From the NCBI RefSeq assembly GCF_055900595.2, contig NZ_CM148325.1: a stretch of 64,000 nucleotides of DNA, one strand, 5' to 3'. The position numbers were made by a program, and so were the translations under genes. Positions 5,171 to 21,423 of the stretch are shown here, one piece after another. How positions within the stretch are numbered: the first letter of the stretch is position 1; the number at the start of each line of letters is the position of its first letter. The notes under the pieces are model-generated. The model saw only the letters and a list, made by a program, of their open reading frames with translations, ran no database searches and had not been told where the DNA came from.

Positions 5171-5797
5171 TCAGAGATACAGCGAGCGGACGATGAGGAA
5201 ATGTCCGGCAAAATAACAAGCGGCGGCAATCGCGTTATCCGCACGGAAGCGTCGGCGATAGTGGCTACCCAGCCAGACAAAGTTACTGATAAACAGCAAC
5301 GAAGCGCCGACAAATGCAGAAAGTGCCGGAGCGGTTGGACGGAAGAACCACAGTTCACCTGCCAGCCATACCATCACCAGCGTCATGCCGATAAACGTGC
5401 AGATAGGCCAACGATACTCTTCCAGACGCGTCCAGATAATCGCCAGTAACAGCGCACCCAGCACCAGCAACACCAGCGGCAAAGGCCAGAAGAATGAGAG
5501 CGTCATCTGGCTGGCGAAATAGATGGTGTACAGCAGGTGTGAGAGGAAAAACGCGCCGATGGCGTACATCAGACGTTGACGTGGCAACAGGGTTAGCGCA
5601 TCGCCCAGCAGTGAGGCGCACAGTCCCGCCAGCACCAGATAACTAATGGCGTCGAACATCGGCGCTTGCCATGCCAGTAACAGCAGGAGAAGAAGGGTTA
5701 ACGGTTTAAACACCCAGCGTTGCCAGGTTGGCCCACGATACGATGCATCCACAGATAGCCATGCGGAAAGACAGACTGCGATAAACGACCAAAGCAT
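5171..5797 (-). CDS. yhhN: YhhN-family integral membrane protein
   Basis: 208-aa polytopic membrane ORF, synteny. Confidence 0.88.
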
Positions 5798-5937
5798 CTT
5801 AGTTCCTTGAATTCGTTATTTTTTCGTAAGCGGAATGCCTACGGTCTTGCTTCCAGTTTAGTGGCGAGGGTGGACGGATGACAACACCATAACTGGCAGG
5901 GTATGCTTATTTCCGCATTTTCCGATGAGGGATAAAG

Positions 5938-6569: not shown

Positions 6570-7155
6570 CACTTTCTCCTTGTGCTTCGCGTTGATACAG
6601 GCGGTAAGCCACCTGACCTGCCACTTTTTCCCGATGTAATGACCAGTTCGCCGGAACGGTGGGGAGCCCGTTTTCGACTTCGCTTTCGACATAAATCAGG
6701 GCTTCGTCAGCCAGCCAGCCGTTATCTTCCAGTAAATTTATCGTCTCTTCTAACAAGCCACGGCGGAACGGTGGATCGACAAAAACGATATTATGCGGTG
6801 TGCCTTTTTGCGCCAGGAATGACATCGCGTTGCTGTTCACCACGCGTGCATTACCTGCTTTTAGTGTCGCCAGATTCTTAATTAACTGTTGAGAAACCGC
6901 GCGATCCATCTCAATCAACGTGGCCCCCGCAGCGTAGCGCGATAACGCTTCCAGCCCCAGCGCGCCGCTCCCGGCGAAGCAATCCAGACATTGGGCGTCA
7001 ACAATGACCGGAGCCAGCCAGTTAAACAACGTTTCGCGTACGCGGTCGGTGGTGGGGCGCAGGCCTGGGCTATCAGGAACCGGGAGTTTACGGCCTCGCC
7101 ACTGCCCGCCAATAATGCGGATTTGGCCGCTGCCGGAATGATTCGGTTTTTTCAT
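6559..7155 (-). CDS. rsmD: 16S rRNA (guanine966-N2)-methyltransferase RsmD
   Basis: 198 aa; SAM-methyltransferase motifs (LDCFAGSGALG, DPPF). Confidence 0.93.
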   Translation of the reverse strand: MKKPNHSGSGQIRIIGGQWRGRKLPVPDSPGLRPTTDRVRETLFNWLAPVIVDAQCLDCFAGSGALGLEALSRYAAGATLIEMDRAVSQQLIKNLATLKAGNARVVNSNAMSFLAQKGTPHNIVFVDPPFRRGLLEETINLLEDNGWLADEALIYVESEVENGLPTVPANWSLHREKVAGQVAYRLYQREAQGESDAD

Positions 7156-7304
7156 GATAAATTGCTCAATCCGCCAGATAACACATACTTGCAGGCGGTG
7201 ATGTGAATTAAGTTAAGTGATAGACTATTTCATCATTTTTTTAGCTGCTATGTACATAGCGTTAACGCTGTGCCATGAAGCAACAGCGAGGAGTGTAGTC
7301 GCAA

Positions 7305-8843
7305 ATGGCGAAAGAAAAAAAACGTGGCTTTTTTTCCTGGCTGGGCTTTGGTCAAAAAGAGCAGACCCCGGAAAAAGAGACAGAAGTCCAGAACGAACAA
7401 CCAGTTGTAGAAGAAATCGTTCAGGCGCAAGAGCCTGCGAAGGCTTCTGAACAAGCCGTTGAAGAGCAGCCGCAGGCGCATACTGAAGCCGAGGCGGAAA
7501 CTTTTGCTGCCGACGTTGTGGAAGTTACTGAACAGGTTGCTGAAAGTGAAAAAGCGCAGTCTGAAGTTGTTGCTGAACCGGAAGTTATTACTGAGCCGGA
7601 AACGATAGTTGAAGAAACGCCAGCGTCAGTCATTGAACCTGAAGTTACGCCAGAGCCTGTGGCTATCGAGCGTGAAGAGCTGCCGTTGCCGGAAGACGTC
7701 AAAGCCGAAGAGGTTTCGCCAGAAGAGTGGCAGGCCGAAGCGGAAACCGTAGAGATTGTCGAAGCGGCGGAAGAAGAAGCGGCTAAAGACGAAATCACCG
7801 ACGAAGAGCTGGAAGCACAGGCGCTGGCTGCCGAAGCGGCAGAAGAGGCGGTGATGGTGGTTCCTCCGGCAGAAGAAGAGCAGCCGGTGGAAGAAATCGC
7901 TCAGGAGCAGGAAAAACCGACCAAAGAAGGTTTCTTCGCGCGCCTGAAACGCAGTCTGTTAAAAACCAAAGAAAACCTCGGTTCCGGATTTATCAGCCTG
8001 TTCCGCGGTAAAAAAATCGACGATGATCTGTTTGAAGAATTGGAAGAGCAATTGCTCATCGCCGATGTGGGCGTGGAAACCACGCGTAAAATTATCACCA
8101 ATCTGACAGAAGGTGCGACCCGCAAGCAGCTTCGTGATGCCGAGGCGCTCTATGGCCTACTGAAAGAAGAGATGGGTGAGATTCTGGCGAAAGTCGATGA
8201 ACCGCTGAACGTTGAAGGTAAAACGCCGTTCGTGATCCTGATGGTGGGCGTCAACGGTGTGGGTAAAACCACGACGATCGGTAAGCTGGCGCGTCAGTTT
8301 GAGCAGCAGGGTAAATCAGTGATGCTGGCGGCGGGCGATACTTTCCGTGCAGCAGCGGTTGAACAGCTTCAGGTCTGGGGTCAGCGTAATAATATTCCGG
8401 TGATTGCCCAGCATACCGGTGCGGATTCCGCTTCTGTTATCTTCGACGCCATTCAGGCCGCTAAAGCGCGTAACATCGACGTTTTGATTGCCGATACCGC
8501 CGGACGCCTGCAGAACAAATCGCACTTGATGGAAGAGTTGAAGAAAATCGTCCGCGTGATGAAGAAACTCGACGTTGAAGCTCCGCATGAAGTTATGCTG
8601 ACTATCGACGCCAGTACCGGGCAGAATGCAGTAAGCCAGGCCAAACTGTTCCACGAAGCCGTTGGCTTAACCGGCATCACGCTAACGAAACTGGACGGCA
8701 CGGCGAAAGGCGGGGTAATTTTCTCGGTGGCTGACCAGTTTGGTATCCCTATCCGCTACATTGGTGTCGGCGAACGTATTGAGGATTTGCGTCCGTTTAA
8801 AGCGGACGACTTTATAGAGGCACTTTTTGCCCGAGAGGATTAA
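7305..8843 (+). CDS. ftsY: Signal recognition particle receptor FtsY
   Basis: 512 aa; acidic E/A-rich N-terminal domain then SRP-GTPase motifs (GVNGVGKTTT, DTAGR, TKLD). Confidence 0.97.
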   Translation: MAKEKKRGFFSWLGFGQKEQTPEKETEVQNEQPVVEEIVQAQEPAKASEQAVEEQPQAHTEAEAETFAADVVEVTEQVAESEKAQSEVVAEPEVITEPETIVEETPASVIEPEVTPEPVAIEREELPLPEDVKAEEVSPEEWQAEAETVEIVEAAEEEAAKDEITDEELEAQALAAEAAEEAVMVVPPAEEEQPVEEIAQEQEKPTKEGFFARLKRSLLKTKENLGSGFISLFRGKKIDDDLFEELEEQLLIADVGVETTRKIITNLTEGATRKQLRDAEALYGLLKEEMGEILAKVDEPLNVEGKTPFVILMVGVNGVGKTTTIGKLARQFEQQGKSVMLAAGDTFRAAAVEQLQVWGQRNNIPVIAQHTGADSASVIFDAIQAAKARNIDVLIADTAGRLQNKSHLMEELKKIVRVMKKLDVEAPHEVMLTIDASTGQNAVSQAKLFHEAVGLTGITLTKLDGTAKGGVIFSVADQFGIPIRYIGVGERIEDLRPFKADDFIEALFARED

Positions 8844-18168: not shown

Positions 18169-18882
18169 ATGGAAAAAGTCATGTTGTCCTTTGACAAAGT
18201 CAGCGCCCACTACGGCAAAATCCAGGCGCTGCATGAGGTGAGCCTGCATATCAATCAGGGCGAGATTGTCACCCTCATTGGCGCGAACGGCGCGGGGAAA
18301 ACCACCTTGCTCGGCACATTATGCGGCGACCCGCGCGCCACCAGCGGGCGAATTGTGTTTGATGATAAAGACATTACCGACTGGCAGACAGCGAAAATCA
18401 TGCGCGAAGCGGTGGCGATTGTTCCGGAAGGGCGTCGTGTTTTCTCGCGGATGACGGTGGAAGAGAACCTGGCGATGGGCGGCTTTTTTGCCGAACGCGA
18501 CCAGTTCCAGGAACGCATAAAGTGGGTCTATGAACTGTTTCCACGTCTGCATGAGCGCCGTGTTCAGCGGGCAGGCACCATGTCCGGCGGTGAACAGCAG
18601 ATGCTGGCGATTGGTCGCGCTTTGATGAGTAACCCACGTTTGCTATTGCTTGATGAACCCTCGCTCGGACTGGCACCGATTATCATCCAGCAAATTTTCG
18701 ACACCATCGAGCAACTGCGCGAGCAGGGGATGACTATCTTCCTCGTCGAGCAGAACGCCAACCAGGCGCTAAAGCTGGCGGATCGCGGCTACGTGCTGGA
18801 AAATGGTCATGTCGTGCTTTCCGATACTGGCGACGCGCTGCTGGCAAACGAAGCGGTGAGAAGTGCGTATTTAGGCGGGTAA
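18169..18882 (+). CDS. livF: Branched-chain amino acid ABC ATPase
   Basis: Start at internal Met MEKVMLSF; Walker A GANGAGKTT, signature MSGGEQQM. Confidence 0.95.
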   Translation: MEKVMLSFDKVSAHYGKIQALHEVSLHINQGEIVTLIGANGAGKTTLLGTLCGDPRATSGRIVFDDKDITDWQTAKIMREAVAIVPEGRRVFSRMTVEENLAMGGFFAERDQFQERIKWVYELFPRLHERRVQRAGTMSGGEQQMLAIGRALMSNPRLLLLDEPSLGLAPIIIQQIFDTIEQLREQGMTIFLVEQNANQALKLADRGYVLENGHVVLSDTGDALLANEAVRSAYLGG

Positions 18883-18893
18883 ATTATCGAATA

Positions 18894-18924
18894 CCCGGCA
18901 GCCAGCTTCTGCCGGGTTCTTCGT
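18894..18924 (+). terminator. liv operon terminator
   Basis: CCCGGCAG-ccagcttc-CTGCCGGG hairpin followed by TTCTTCG. Confidence 0.7.
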
Positions 18925-19000
18925 CCGTATACAGACTTGTTTCAACTGACCGGGAGGATTAAAACCAGACCACTTATTTGCCACGGAAAGGTTCCCTCCC

Positions 19001-19747
19001 ATGCATTATGCCGTTGTCGTCATGCTTGAACTGCTTTGCTGTATTCACGCTTATCGCTCCGGACAAGAGCGATACTGGATTTTTATTATCTTCTGTTTTC
19101 CGGTGATTGGCTGCGTGGCGTATTTCGTCATGGTTATGCTGCCTGAAACGGGCGCTGACCGTCACGGGCGTACTTTGCTGATGCGCCTGCAGGACAAAAT
19201 CAGCCCGGAACGCCACCTGCACAAATTAACCGAAGAGCTGGCGATTGCCGAGACCAATCAAAACCATTATGCGTTAGCTAACGAACTGGCGCGCCTTGGG
19301 CGTTATCACGAAGCCGTTCCCCATTATCAGCAGGCGTTAAGCGGAATTTTCGCCCATGAAGCGGTAATGATGTTAAGCCTGGCGCAGGCGCAATTTGCTA
19401 TTCAGGAGTTCGCCGCCTGTCAGCAGATGCTGGAAGATGTGATGCGTTATAACCCCGATTTTCAGTCGGCAGACGGGCATTTGTTATTTGCCAGAGCGTT
19501 AGCCGCACAAGAAAAATACGCTGATGCGGAAAGCGAGTTTGAGGTGCTTGTTTCTTATTACCCCGGCCCGCAGGCACGTATTTACTATGCGGAAATGTTG
19601 GCGAAAATGAGTCGGTTACGTGAAGCCAACGAGCAGTATGTTGCTGTAGTTGATACGGCTAAACGCTCAAGACCTCATTATAGAAAACACCACCGGGAAT
19701 GGATTAAGACCGCCAATGAACGGCTGAAGCAGAGTGTGGTGCAATGA
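19001..19747 (+). CDS. Hypothetical protein: N-terminal PLDc_N-like two-helix membrane anchor plus TPR-like helical domain (248 aa)
   Basis: Long ORF with E. coli-like codon usage; N-terminus YWIFIIFCFPVIGCVAYFV resembles the N-terminal membrane motif of cardiolipin synthase; the rest is helical-repeat (TPR-like); SD-like GGAAAGG about 10 nt upstream; two hairpin terminators downstream. Confidence 0.7.
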   Translation: MHYAVVVMLELLCCIHAYRSGQERYWIFIIFCFPVIGCVAYFVMVMLPETGADRHGRTLLMRLQDKISPERHLHKLTEELAIAETNQNHYALANELARLGRYHEAVPHYQQALSGIFAHEAVMMLSLAQAQFAIQEFAACQQMLEDVMRYNPDFQSADGHLLFARALAAQEKYADAESEFEVLVSYYPGPQARIYYAEMLAKMSRLREANEQYVAVVDTAKRSRPHYRKHHREWIKTANERLKQSVVQ

Positions 19748-19816
19748 AAATCTTCTTTGCCGTTAGACCAGTGTCGCGGCAATCTTTTGTTAAAATTGAA
19801 AAATGTAGCTCTCATC

Positions 19817-19856
19817 GGGCAGCAAAACTGGACGCAGAATTTGCTGCCATTTTTGC
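19817..19856 (+). terminator. Hairpin plus T-tract downstream of the 248-aa ORF
   Basis: GGCAGCAAA ... TTTGCTGCC then ATTTTTG. Confidence 0.6.
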
Positions 19857-19876
19857 TCTTCATGGTAAGGAGTTCT

Positions 19877-19907
19877 GGCGATTAGCTGACCGTTAATCGC
19901 CTCTTTT
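19877..19907 (+). terminator. Second hairpin plus T-tract upstream of the ugpB promoter
   Basis: GGCGATTA-gctgaccg-TAATCGCC then TCTTTTC. Confidence 0.6.
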
Positions 19908-19970
19908 CAGTGCATTCTCGGGATATCCGTGCCCCATCTCCCAATTTCCCTCACCCACGCCGTCACCGCC

Positions 19971-19988
19971 TTGTCATCTTTCTGACAC
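19971..19988 (+). promoter_or_regulatory. Pho box (PhoB site) of the ugpB promoter
   Basis: TTGTCATctttCTGACAC matches the CTGTCAT-N4-CTGTCAC consensus, about 120 bp upstream of ugpB. Confidence 0.7.
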
Positions 19989-20106
19989 CTTACTATCTTA
20001 CAAATGTAACAAAAAAGTTATTTTTCTGTAATTCGAGCATGTCATGTTACCCCGCGAGCATAAAACGCGTGAATTCGCGCATTCGGTACAACAAGAGAGA
20101 TAAACG

Positions 20107-21423
20107 ATGAAACCGTTACATTATACAGCTTCAGCACTGGCGCTCGGACTGGCGTTAATGGGGAATGCACAGGCAGTGACGACCATTCCGTTCTGGCATT
20201 CTATGGAAGGGGAACTGGGTAAAGAGGTGGATTCTCTTGCCCAACGTTTTAACGCCGAAAACCCGGATTACAAAATTGTACCGACCTATAAAGGCAACTA
20301 CGAACAGAATTTAAGCGCGGGGATTGCCGCATTTCGTACCGGCAACGCGCCGGCTATTTTGCAGGTTTATGAAGTTGGCACCGCCACCATGATGGCGTCG
20401 AAAGCCATTAAACCGGTATATGACGTGTTTAAAGAGGCGGGGATTCAATTCGATGAGTCGCAGTTTGTGCCGACGGTTTCAGGCTACTACTCCGACAGCA
20501 AAACCGGACATTTACTCTCCCAGCCGTTCAACAGCTCGACTCCTGTTCTCTATTACAACAAAGATGCTTTCAAGAAAGCGGGATTAGACCCGGAACAGCC
20601 GCCGAAAACCTGGCAGGATCTGGCAGACTATGCCGCGAAACTGAAAGCCTCTGGTATGAAGTGCGGCTACGCCAGCGGCTGGCAGGGCTGGATCCAACTG
20701 GAAAACTTTAGCGCCTGGAACGGTCTGCCGTTTGCCAGCAAAAACAACGGCTTTGACGGCACGGACGCGGTGCTTGAGTTCAACAAGCCGGAGCAGGTGA
20801 AACACATCGCCATGCTCGAAGAGATGAACAAGAAGGGCGATTTCAGTTACGTAGGGCGTAAGGATGAATCTACCGAGAAGTTCTATAACGGTGATTGCGC
20901 GATGACGACCGCCTCTTCGGGTTCTCTTGCCAACATTCGCGAGTACGCCAAATTCAACTACGGCGTAGGTATGATGCCTTACGACGCCGATGCGAAAGAT
21001 GCGCCACAAAACGCCATTATCGGCGGAGCCAGCCTGTGGGTGATGCAGGGCAAAGATAAAGAAACTTACACCGGCGTGGCGAAGTTTCTCGACTTCCTCG
21101 CGAAGCCAGAAAACGCTGCCGAGTGGCATCAGAAAACCGGTTATCTGCCAATTACCAAAGCGGCGTATGACCTGACCCGTGAGCAGGGCTTTTATGAGAA
21201 AAACCCAGGGGCGGATACTGCGACGCGTCAGATGCTGAACAAGCCGCCGTTGCCGTTCACCAAAGGGCTGCGTCTGGGCAACATGCCGCAGATCCGCGTG
21301 ATTGTGGATGAAGAGCTGGAAAGCGTGTGGACCGGTAAGAAGACGCCACAGCAGGCGCTGGATACCGCTGTTGAGCGTGGGAACCAGTTACTGCGCCGCT
21401 TTGAGAAATCTACGAAGTCTTAA
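20107..21423 (+). CDS. ugpB: sn-Glycerol-3-phosphate-binding periplasmic protein
   Basis: 438 aa with signal peptide, synteny. Confidence 0.96.

Follow-up and report, generated by a model that had tools for sequence, protein, structure and literature searches.

The window analysed here, a stretch of 64,000 nucleotides, carries a genuine gene in the spacer between livF and ugpB that was missed by expectations based on E. coli K-12. The open reading frame at 19001-19747 on the plus strand is a real gene and is selectively maintained, and the extra 1.2 kb at this position is, judging by genome comparison, the ancestral state and not an insertion. By profile matches and structure prediction, the product is a membrane hairpin of the PLDc_N type followed by four tetratricopeptide repeats (TPRs) and a capping helix. 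We consider it fairly probable that the gene forms its own unit and encodes a functional 248-aa inner-membrane protein whose TPR domain faces the cytoplasm and serves as an adaptor; the role is one that we infer from the sequence and the predicted model.

The gene and its flanking signals

The spacer spans 1224 bp, from the end of livF at 18882 to the start of ugpB at 20107. The features assigned within it are given below with the evidence used for each.

18883-19923, plus strand: variable segment of the livF-ugpB spacer, 1041 bp (genome comparison)
18893-18917, plus strand: hairpin after the livF stop, ACCCGGCAG...CUGCCGGGU (dG -20 kcal/mol, z -4.2)
18925-19000, plus strand: upstream block conserved across Escherichia (alignment)
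18937-18942 and 18960-18965, plus strand: candidate weak sigma-70 promoter, TTGTTT and TAAAAC with a 17-nt spacer (read by eye)
18985-18991, plus strand: ribosome-binding site GGAAAGG (sequence)
19001-19747, plus strand: coding sequence, PLDc_N-like hairpin then TPR domain (ORF list, homologues, dN/dS, AlphaFold2)
19001-19153, plus strand: predicted two-helix hydrophobic hairpin, codons 1-51 (AlphaFold2, Pfam, conservation)
19154-19255, plus strand: basic linker, codons 52-85, with predicted helices at 54-67 and 71-82 (AlphaFold2, alignment)
19256-19744, plus strand: four predicted TPR pairs and cap, codons 86-248 (AlphaFold2, Pfam)
19818-19860, plus strand: first downstream terminator-like site, hairpin 19818-19848 then AUUUUUGCUCUU (dG -17.4, z -3.4)
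19877-19908, plus strand: second downstream terminator-like site, hairpin 19877-19901 then UCUUUUC (dG about -15 to -16, z -3.8)
19924-20106, plus strand: ugpB promoter and leader, at the right edge of the variable segment (genome comparison)

The ORF list of the window gives 19001-19747 as an intact, ATG-started frame of 248 aa and a stop codon, and the ATG at 19001 was taken as the right start because M1 aligns with the start of the family. A first-pass annotation, made from the letters of the window, had drawn attention to a clean 747-nt ORF in a 1.2-kb livF-ugpB gap, with native-looking codon usage and a probability of arising by chance of roughly 1e-5 per start codon. These points were borne out. 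The chance of a stop-free run of 248 codons was computed as 6.7e-6 per start, and a codon-adaptation-style score reached 0.66 in frame, compared with 0.50 and 0.49 off frame, near the mean of 0.694 ± 0.043 for the 30 long ORFs of the window that served as reference. GC3 of the ORF was 0.54, somewhat under that of livG, livF and ugpB (0.63-0.67).

Selection on the protein was assessed by the method of Nei and Gojobori. The window allele gave dN/dS values of 0.093 against O157:H7 EDL933 and 0.124 against O145:H28, with dS of about 0.2 in both comparisons. The orthologue in C. freundii is equal in length and shares 75% amino acid identity; synonymous sites are saturated in this comparison. Apart from the copy in the E. 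albertii type strain, which is frameshifted near codon 185, homologues have an intact frame under purifying selection; disrupted homologous frames of the kind that the first-pass annotation had named as a sign of a non-coding region were otherwise not encountered. The description of the ORF as unexplained needs a qualification. Its product is already in RefSeq as WP_032303945.1 under the generic name 'tetratricopeptide repeat protein', and the E. coli copies there are called either this or 'hypothetical protein', but no dedicated Pfam or NCBIfam family was found.

The hairpins around the gene, one upstream and two hairpin/T-tract sites downstream, lie as they had been described, and each of the three (18893-18917, 19818-19848 and 19877-19901) was more stable than all 200 of its shuffles. 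The upstream hairpin is followed by UCUUCGU and is likely the terminator of the liv operon; a CCCGG...CCGGG stem also occurs in C. freundii. Across all Escherichia compared, the adjoining block of about 75 bp (18925-19000) has almost the same sequence, even in E. albertii and E. whittamii, where an extra 0.4 kb separates it from livF. A consensus promoter scan upstream of the gene listed none, the TTGTTT-N17-TAAAAC candidate included, and inspection of the block by eye found no sigma-E, sigma-32 or sigma-54 consensus. An Rfam scan of 18700-20300 matched no RNA family. On the right, the segment 19924-20106 is common to 5424 of 5426 complete E. coli genomes and lies outside the gene; it includes CTTGTCATCTTTCTGACAC, which from its sequence and textbook ugp regulation we take to be a candidate pho box of ugpB. 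As far as these signals indicate, the gene would form its own transcription unit.

Distribution of the gene and history of the locus

Of 5426 complete E. coli genomes, 659 (12%) have the full spacer with the gene. Each carrier has one full copy, and all 660 copies are chromosomal, none being on plasmids. Carriers sampled across the ranking included O157:H7 (with EDL933), O55:H7 and O145:H28, as well as a range of isolates from humans and animals; Nissle 1917 is without the gene. Non-carrier E. coli genomes share with the window the last 183 bp of the spacer only (19924-20106). The first-pass annotation had taken livF and ugpB to be adjacent genes in K-12, and this agrees with the K-12-like O16:H48 genome, in which a 398-bp spacer ending in the same 183 bp joins the two genes. 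The comparison of the spacer with E. coli genomes that it had called for showed the gene to be absent from K-12-type genomes, so that no named K-12 copy accounts for the ORF. About 215 bp of hairpin and REP-type palindromes replace the variable segment in these genomes.

Outside E. coli, the order livF-gene-ugpB is kept in seven other enteric genomes. It was seen in Escherichia sp. E1V33, E. whittamii, E. albertii, Citrobacter sp. NCU1, a Pseudocitrobacter MAG and C. freundii; MOD1-EC7003 also has the gene, on a contig that stops before ugpB. In the K-12 spacer, positions 120-395 match at 88.9% a stretch found in E. albertii downstream of that species' gene copy. As the K-12 spacer keeps this sequence, K-12 is read as the deletion state, and its arrangement is most simply explained by loss of the gene from an ancestor that carried it, and not by the reverse. 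On this comparative evidence the livF-ugpB position is the ancestral site of the gene in Escherichia and Citrobacter, about 88% of complete E. coli genomes have lost it by deletion, and K-12 represents a derived, deleted state at this locus.

A different history would have the gene arrive recently by horizontal transfer, as cargo of a small island, or persist as a decaying remnant with no function. Its restriction to 12% of the complete E. coli genomes, its GC3 below that of its neighbours and the frameshift in the E. albertii type strain are what such a history would leave, and in C. freundii a Phd/Fic toxin-antitoxin pair and two small ORFs share the spacer with the gene, a sign that the site accepts foreign DNA. 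These points are outweighed by the fact that E. albertii, E. whittamii, two cryptic Escherichia species, Citrobacter and Pseudocitrobacter have the gene at the same site and in the same direction, by the E. albertii-like sequence left in the K-12 spacer, by gene divergence that keeps in step with that of the flanking livF and ugpB, and by dN/dS values of 0.09-0.12. Moreover, no bracketing repeats were found around the gene, no integrase or IS lies near it, a phage search gave no match, and the plasmid collection held no small-plasmid copies. Recent acquisition or decay is thus largely refuted, and we regard it as highly improbable.

Cargo of a mobile element or a defence function was likewise rejected, on the chromosomal location of the copies, the null phage and repeat searches and the lack of a PADLOC match. 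Matches in the plasmid collection were limited to replicons of 0.37-2.3 Mb, from Ralstonia, Methylobacterium and Comamonas (0.37 Mb), at about 30% identity. As it has been lost from 88% of E. coli and is frameshifted in the E. albertii type strain, the gene is dispensable in enterics, and its contribution to fitness there may be small. Accessory genes with no assigned function are common in E. coli.

Predicted architecture and orientation of the protein

A membrane segment resembling the N-terminus of cardiolipin synthase and a TPR-like remainder had both been proposed from the sequence, and profile searches and structure prediction agreed with both. The AlphaFold2 model, computed from an alignment of 146 sequences, is all-helical (pLDDT 94.7, pTM 0.80). 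Two N-terminal helices (residues 2-19 and 25-51, the second kinked at P34) are predicted to form the hairpin. A linker with a conserved P69 leads to four TPR helix pairs (86-98/102-112, 121-133/137-150, 157-169/173-186 and 191-202/206-222), and helices 225-230 and 232-247 make up the C-terminal cap. In Pfam-A, TPR_19 matched twice (1.1e-5 and 8.7e-4) and TPR_1 and TPR_2 at about 1.3e-4, with the TPR models together spanning residues 89-227; tandem repeats are thus detected by profile HMMs and the model shows the helix-pair solenoid. PLDc_N (PF13396) matched residues 26-43 with an i-E of 1.1e-4 and 22.5 bits, a match that covers only 18 positions of the model (22-39 of 42). The two hydrophobic N-terminal helices, with a W / P..G / Y pattern in the second, follow the PLDc_N layout. 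Among 23 family members, TPR_19 was found in 21 at E<=0.001, and PLDc_N in 6 at E<=0.001 and in 13 at E<=0.1.

Everything past the hairpin is TPR; no catalytic domain was detected, and Pfam-A gave no PLDc match. TPR matches in NCBIfam were all sub-threshold, the best being YbgF (E 9.2e-7, 29.5 bits against a cutoff of 90.1), and TIGR04265, the bacterial cardiolipin synthase model, aligned its positions 31-91 to residues 22-82 with a weak E of 0.053. A profile search of PDB sequences returned TPR proteins only, over positions 70-230, and fold matches among solved structures were generic TPR proteins (MamA, YrrB, APC6 and consensus TPR). Foldseek against AFDB50 returned only members of the same family, of 244-254 aa. 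These fold and structure-sequence searches gave no functional lead.

The most conserved residues of the entire protein lie in the hairpin: across the 146-sequence alignment, H16, W26, G37 and Y41 are conserved at 99%, P48 at 98% and P34 at 92%. Within the TPR part, conservation covers the small and hydrophobic positions canonical for TPRs and the polar residues R165, E179, E191, R195 and W234, and the family shares the motifs SADGHLL(Y/F)AR at residues 156-165 in helix A3 and YYPGP at 186-190. Information content was higher in the A helices (A3 2.79 bits, A4 2.51 bits) than in the B helices (B3 1.99, B4 1.55). As the concave groove of a TPR domain is lined by its A helices, this is the pattern expected if the groove binds something.

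From these observations we propose that the hairpin would insert with both ends in the cytoplasm, which would bring the TPR domain up to the cytoplasmic side of the membrane. The domain would act as a tether or adaptor, holding a partner protein or peptide in its concave groove, where the better-conserved A helices would contribute SADGHLL(Y/F)AR from A3 and E191/R195 from A4 (Q and Y in Escherichia). The strong conservation of polar and aromatic residues in the hairpin suggests that it does more than anchor the protein, for example by recognising a lipid or a membrane partner. Counted against the adaptor reading is that the Escherichia proteins have lost two charged residues conserved in the family, with Q191 and Y195 where the family has E (92%) and R (81%).

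The emphasis could also be placed the other way round, with the hairpin as the business end, recognising an anionic phospholipid or a membrane partner, and the TPR part serving mainly for self-assembly in the manner of MamA. That the strongest conservation in the protein falls in the hairpin would fit, as would the weak TIGR04265 match to the N-terminal segment and the presence of MamA, a TPR protein that self-assembles, among the best fold matches. The W, P..G and Y residues are, on the other hand, a generic PLDc_N signature that could reflect packing of the hairpin, and helices A3 and A4 are as conserved as the hairpin (2.5-2.8 bits), which points to a groove for a specific ligand. By analogy with MamA such a division of labour is conceivable, and we judge it very doubtful.

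Orientation in the membrane was assessed from the distribution of basic residues. Averaged across the family, the number of K+R is 0.03 in the two-residue N-terminal tail, 2.2 in the seven-residue loop between the helices and 4.0 in the 20 residues after helix 2 (48-67), which carry a net charge of +2.6. With about four K+R following helix 2, the positive-inside rule favours a cytoplasmic location for both termini and the TPR domain. On the Kyte-Doolittle scale, helix 1 is moderately hydrophobic (1.26) and helix 2 peaks at 2.7 over residues 27-45. The basic inter-helix loop and the modest hydrophobicity of helix 1 make the topology ambiguous. On balance, the charge pattern moderately favours a cytoplasmic TPR domain.

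With the opposite orientation, the TPR domain would be periplasmic and the protein would be an envelope adaptor like CpoB/YbgF, NlpI or YfgM, the last a partner of PpiD/SecYEG. The 2.2 basic residues of the inter-helix loop would suit the cytoplasm, and the best NCBIfam match is to the periplasmic Tol-Pal protein YbgF, although at a score that, as for every other NCBIfam model, falls far below its cutoff. Export of the C-terminal domain is disfavoured by the charge that follows helix 2, the protein has no cleavable signal peptide, and the generic TPR fold matches are uninformative about the compartment. We judge a periplasmic domain to be unlikely.

The wider family and comparison with known systems

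A word-index search returned 40 relatives of about 245-258 aa, which aligned with 92-100% of the query and came from Escherichia, Citrobacter, Pseudomonas (43-44% identity), Exilibacterium (36%) and metagenomes. A profile built from 23 of these relatives was run against 1.84 billion cluster representatives and recovered at least 682 clusters at 50% identity with E<=1e-30; almost all of the best 150 of the 682 were 243-255 aa long and aligned from residue 1 to about 244. Genomes scanned with the 23-sequence alignment yielded 155 relatives in gamma- and alphaproteobacteria, and relatives were also found on chromids of Ralstonia and Methylobacterium. The family is thus compact and widespread across gamma-, alpha- and betaproteobacteria, including the plant pathogens Xanthomonas and Ralstonia as well as E. 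coli O157:H7. Neither Pfam nor NCBIfam has a dedicated model for it, PDB sequences include no solved structure of a member, and the literature library searched contained no paper on it. In UniProt, the members returned by Foldseek are named 'Tetratricopeptide repeat protein', 'Cardiolipin synthase N-terminal domain-containing protein', 'membrane protein' (Xanthomonas) or 'uncharacterized'.

In every context covered the gene stands by itself, and its neighbours differ between lineages. In Pseudomonas alcaligenes, it has a LOG-family gene on one side and a convergent gene for an MscS-type channel on the other, in Exilibacterium it adjoins an ECF sigma cluster and a shikimate-kinase-like gene, and in Lysobacterales an AccA-like gene is upstream; three metagenomic members have neighbours that are all different. 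ORF clustering of 83 loci, which is noisy owing to shadow ORFs in high-GC genomes, gave no neighbour common beyond related genera. Conservation was seen only as order-level synteny (livF/ugpB in enterics, AccA-like in Lysobacterales, LOG/MscS in Pseudomonas). As no neighbour is conserved, guilt by association points to no partner.

The gene itself was already known, being present in RefSeq and UniProt under a generic name. It belongs to a large, tightly defined family for which no dedicated Pfam or NCBIfam model, structure or paper was found. Two known modules are joined in a dispensable accessory gene, which is no surprise in kind. Studied membrane-anchored TPR proteins such as LapB and YfgM are regulators of envelope biogenesis, and this makes the family a reasonable candidate for study. 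The existence of natural E. coli carriers and non-carriers, such as O157:H7 and K-12, makes a search for phenotypes cheap. As a speculation that we consider quite improbable, these proteins of approximately 245 aa, with a hairpin and four TPRs, might form a distinct family in which the cardiolipin-synthase-type hairpin, with its invariant membrane-embedded His, Trp and Tyr, reads out the lipid state of the membrane or docks onto a membrane enzyme while the cytoplasmic TPR groove recruits a specific client. If true, the family would be a LapB-like regulatory adaptor for another pathway, possibly phospholipid homeostasis or membrane proteolysis.

The protein was compared with known systems that share either of its modules. 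PLDc_N is the N-terminal two-helix membrane segment of the bacterial cardiolipin synthase ClsA and also occurs in many small membrane proteins that stand alone. The N-terminus of ClsA likewise has two hydrophobic helices, a short basic loop and a W...P..G...Y pattern in the second helix; the present family differs in having its own near-invariant H16 at the end of helix 1, and a TPR domain takes the place of the PLD/HKD catalytic domains of ClsA-type proteins. A cardiolipin synthase or PLD enzyme was rejected, as there are no HKD domains and TIGR04265 scored 12.5 bits against a cutoff of 290, through the N-terminal segment only.

On the TPR side, identity to MamA, YrrB and designed consensus TPR is 12-20%, and those proteins are without a membrane hairpin; the likeness is one of fold class only and carries no functional information. 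CpoB/YbgF (TIGR02795) and HemY (TIGR00540) were also rejected as identities for the protein. The former scored 29.5 bits against a cutoff of 90.1 and the latter 16.9 bits against 142, and both differ in the N-terminal part and in length.

A likeness in layout is seen to LapB (YciM), a cytoplasmic TPR adaptor anchored in the inner membrane, which links LpxC to FtsH. Both have an N-terminal membrane anchor followed by TPRs, which in the present protein are cytoplasmic by prediction. LapB is a protein of approximately 390 aa with one transmembrane helix, about nine TPRs and, at its C-terminus, a rubredoxin-like zinc domain, whereas the protein described here has a two-helix hairpin, four TPRs and no Cys-rich C-terminus in 248 aa. 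One family member, from Saezia, has been automatically named 'Lipopolysaccharide assembly protein B' in UniProt. Membership of the LapB family was rejected, as NCBIfam returned no LapB model at E<=1 and the C-terminal 100 residues hold no Cys cluster. By analogy, LapB would serve as the best working model for the mode of action of this family, of which it is not a member.

Allelic differences in the TPR gene

In O145:H28, the TPR gene (1501-2250 of locus L009) encodes 249 aa, one codon more than in the window. The added residue is an alanine at about position 121, in the turn between TPR1 and TPR2, and the RefSeq name for this allele is 'hypothetical protein', not 'tetratricopeptide repeat protein'. 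The copy in the E. albertii type strain (L015 6001-6746) carries a frameshift near codon 185; the open reading frame stops at 202 aa, and the other 63 residues are legible in a different frame.

Sequence downstream of the TPR gene

The following features were noted on the ugpB side of the TPR gene and in the K-12-like genome.

Window 19744-19896, + strand: 50-aa ORF with an ATG start codon sharing bases with the TPR gene's TGA stop (ATGA)
L001 (K-12-like locus) 2286-2683: K-12-type spacer, with a short hairpin and two REP-type palindromes

The 50-aa ORF spans both terminator hairpins of the window. As the corresponding region is divergent or missing in E1V33, E. whittamii and E. albertii, the ORF is, judged by sequence comparison, probably non-coding.

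In the K-12-type spacer, the short hairpin (GGAGTC...GACTCC) lies directly 3' of livF, and the REP-type palindromes read GCCTGATGCGC... and TGTAGGCCTGATAAGGCGTTTACGCCGCATCCGGCA. The second palindrome and the DNA on its right are common to K-12 and E. albertii (88.9%) but not to the window, where two terminator hairpins are found in place of this region. Therefore, at least three structural variants exist downstream of the TPR gene.

Additional DNA in the livF-ugpB spacer

Additional segments were observed on either side of the TPR gene, as listed here.

L015 (E. albertii NBRC 107761) 5551-5886: added upstream segment; same region present in L014 (E. whittamii)
L003 (C. freundii CP055551.1), within 6850-8324: two small ORFs of 93 and 135 aa
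L003, within 6850-8324: PhdYeFM antitoxin and Fic-domain toxin pair

In E. albertii and E. whittamii, approximately 0.4 kb is added between livF and the conserved block upstream of the TPR gene. The E. albertii segment, which neither the window nor O157:H7 carries, contains a 111-aa ORF (including ...FLKLFCCAVVL...LIFPVIALWLADKK...), the predicted product of which resembles a small, hydrophobic protein of the membrane.

C. freundii carries four further genes past the TPR gene in the same spacer (L003 6850-8324), and a REP-like palindrome comes after these added genes. The ORFs of 93 and 135 aa had no match in Pfam. The livF-ugpB spacer acts as a minor hotspot for accessory DNA.
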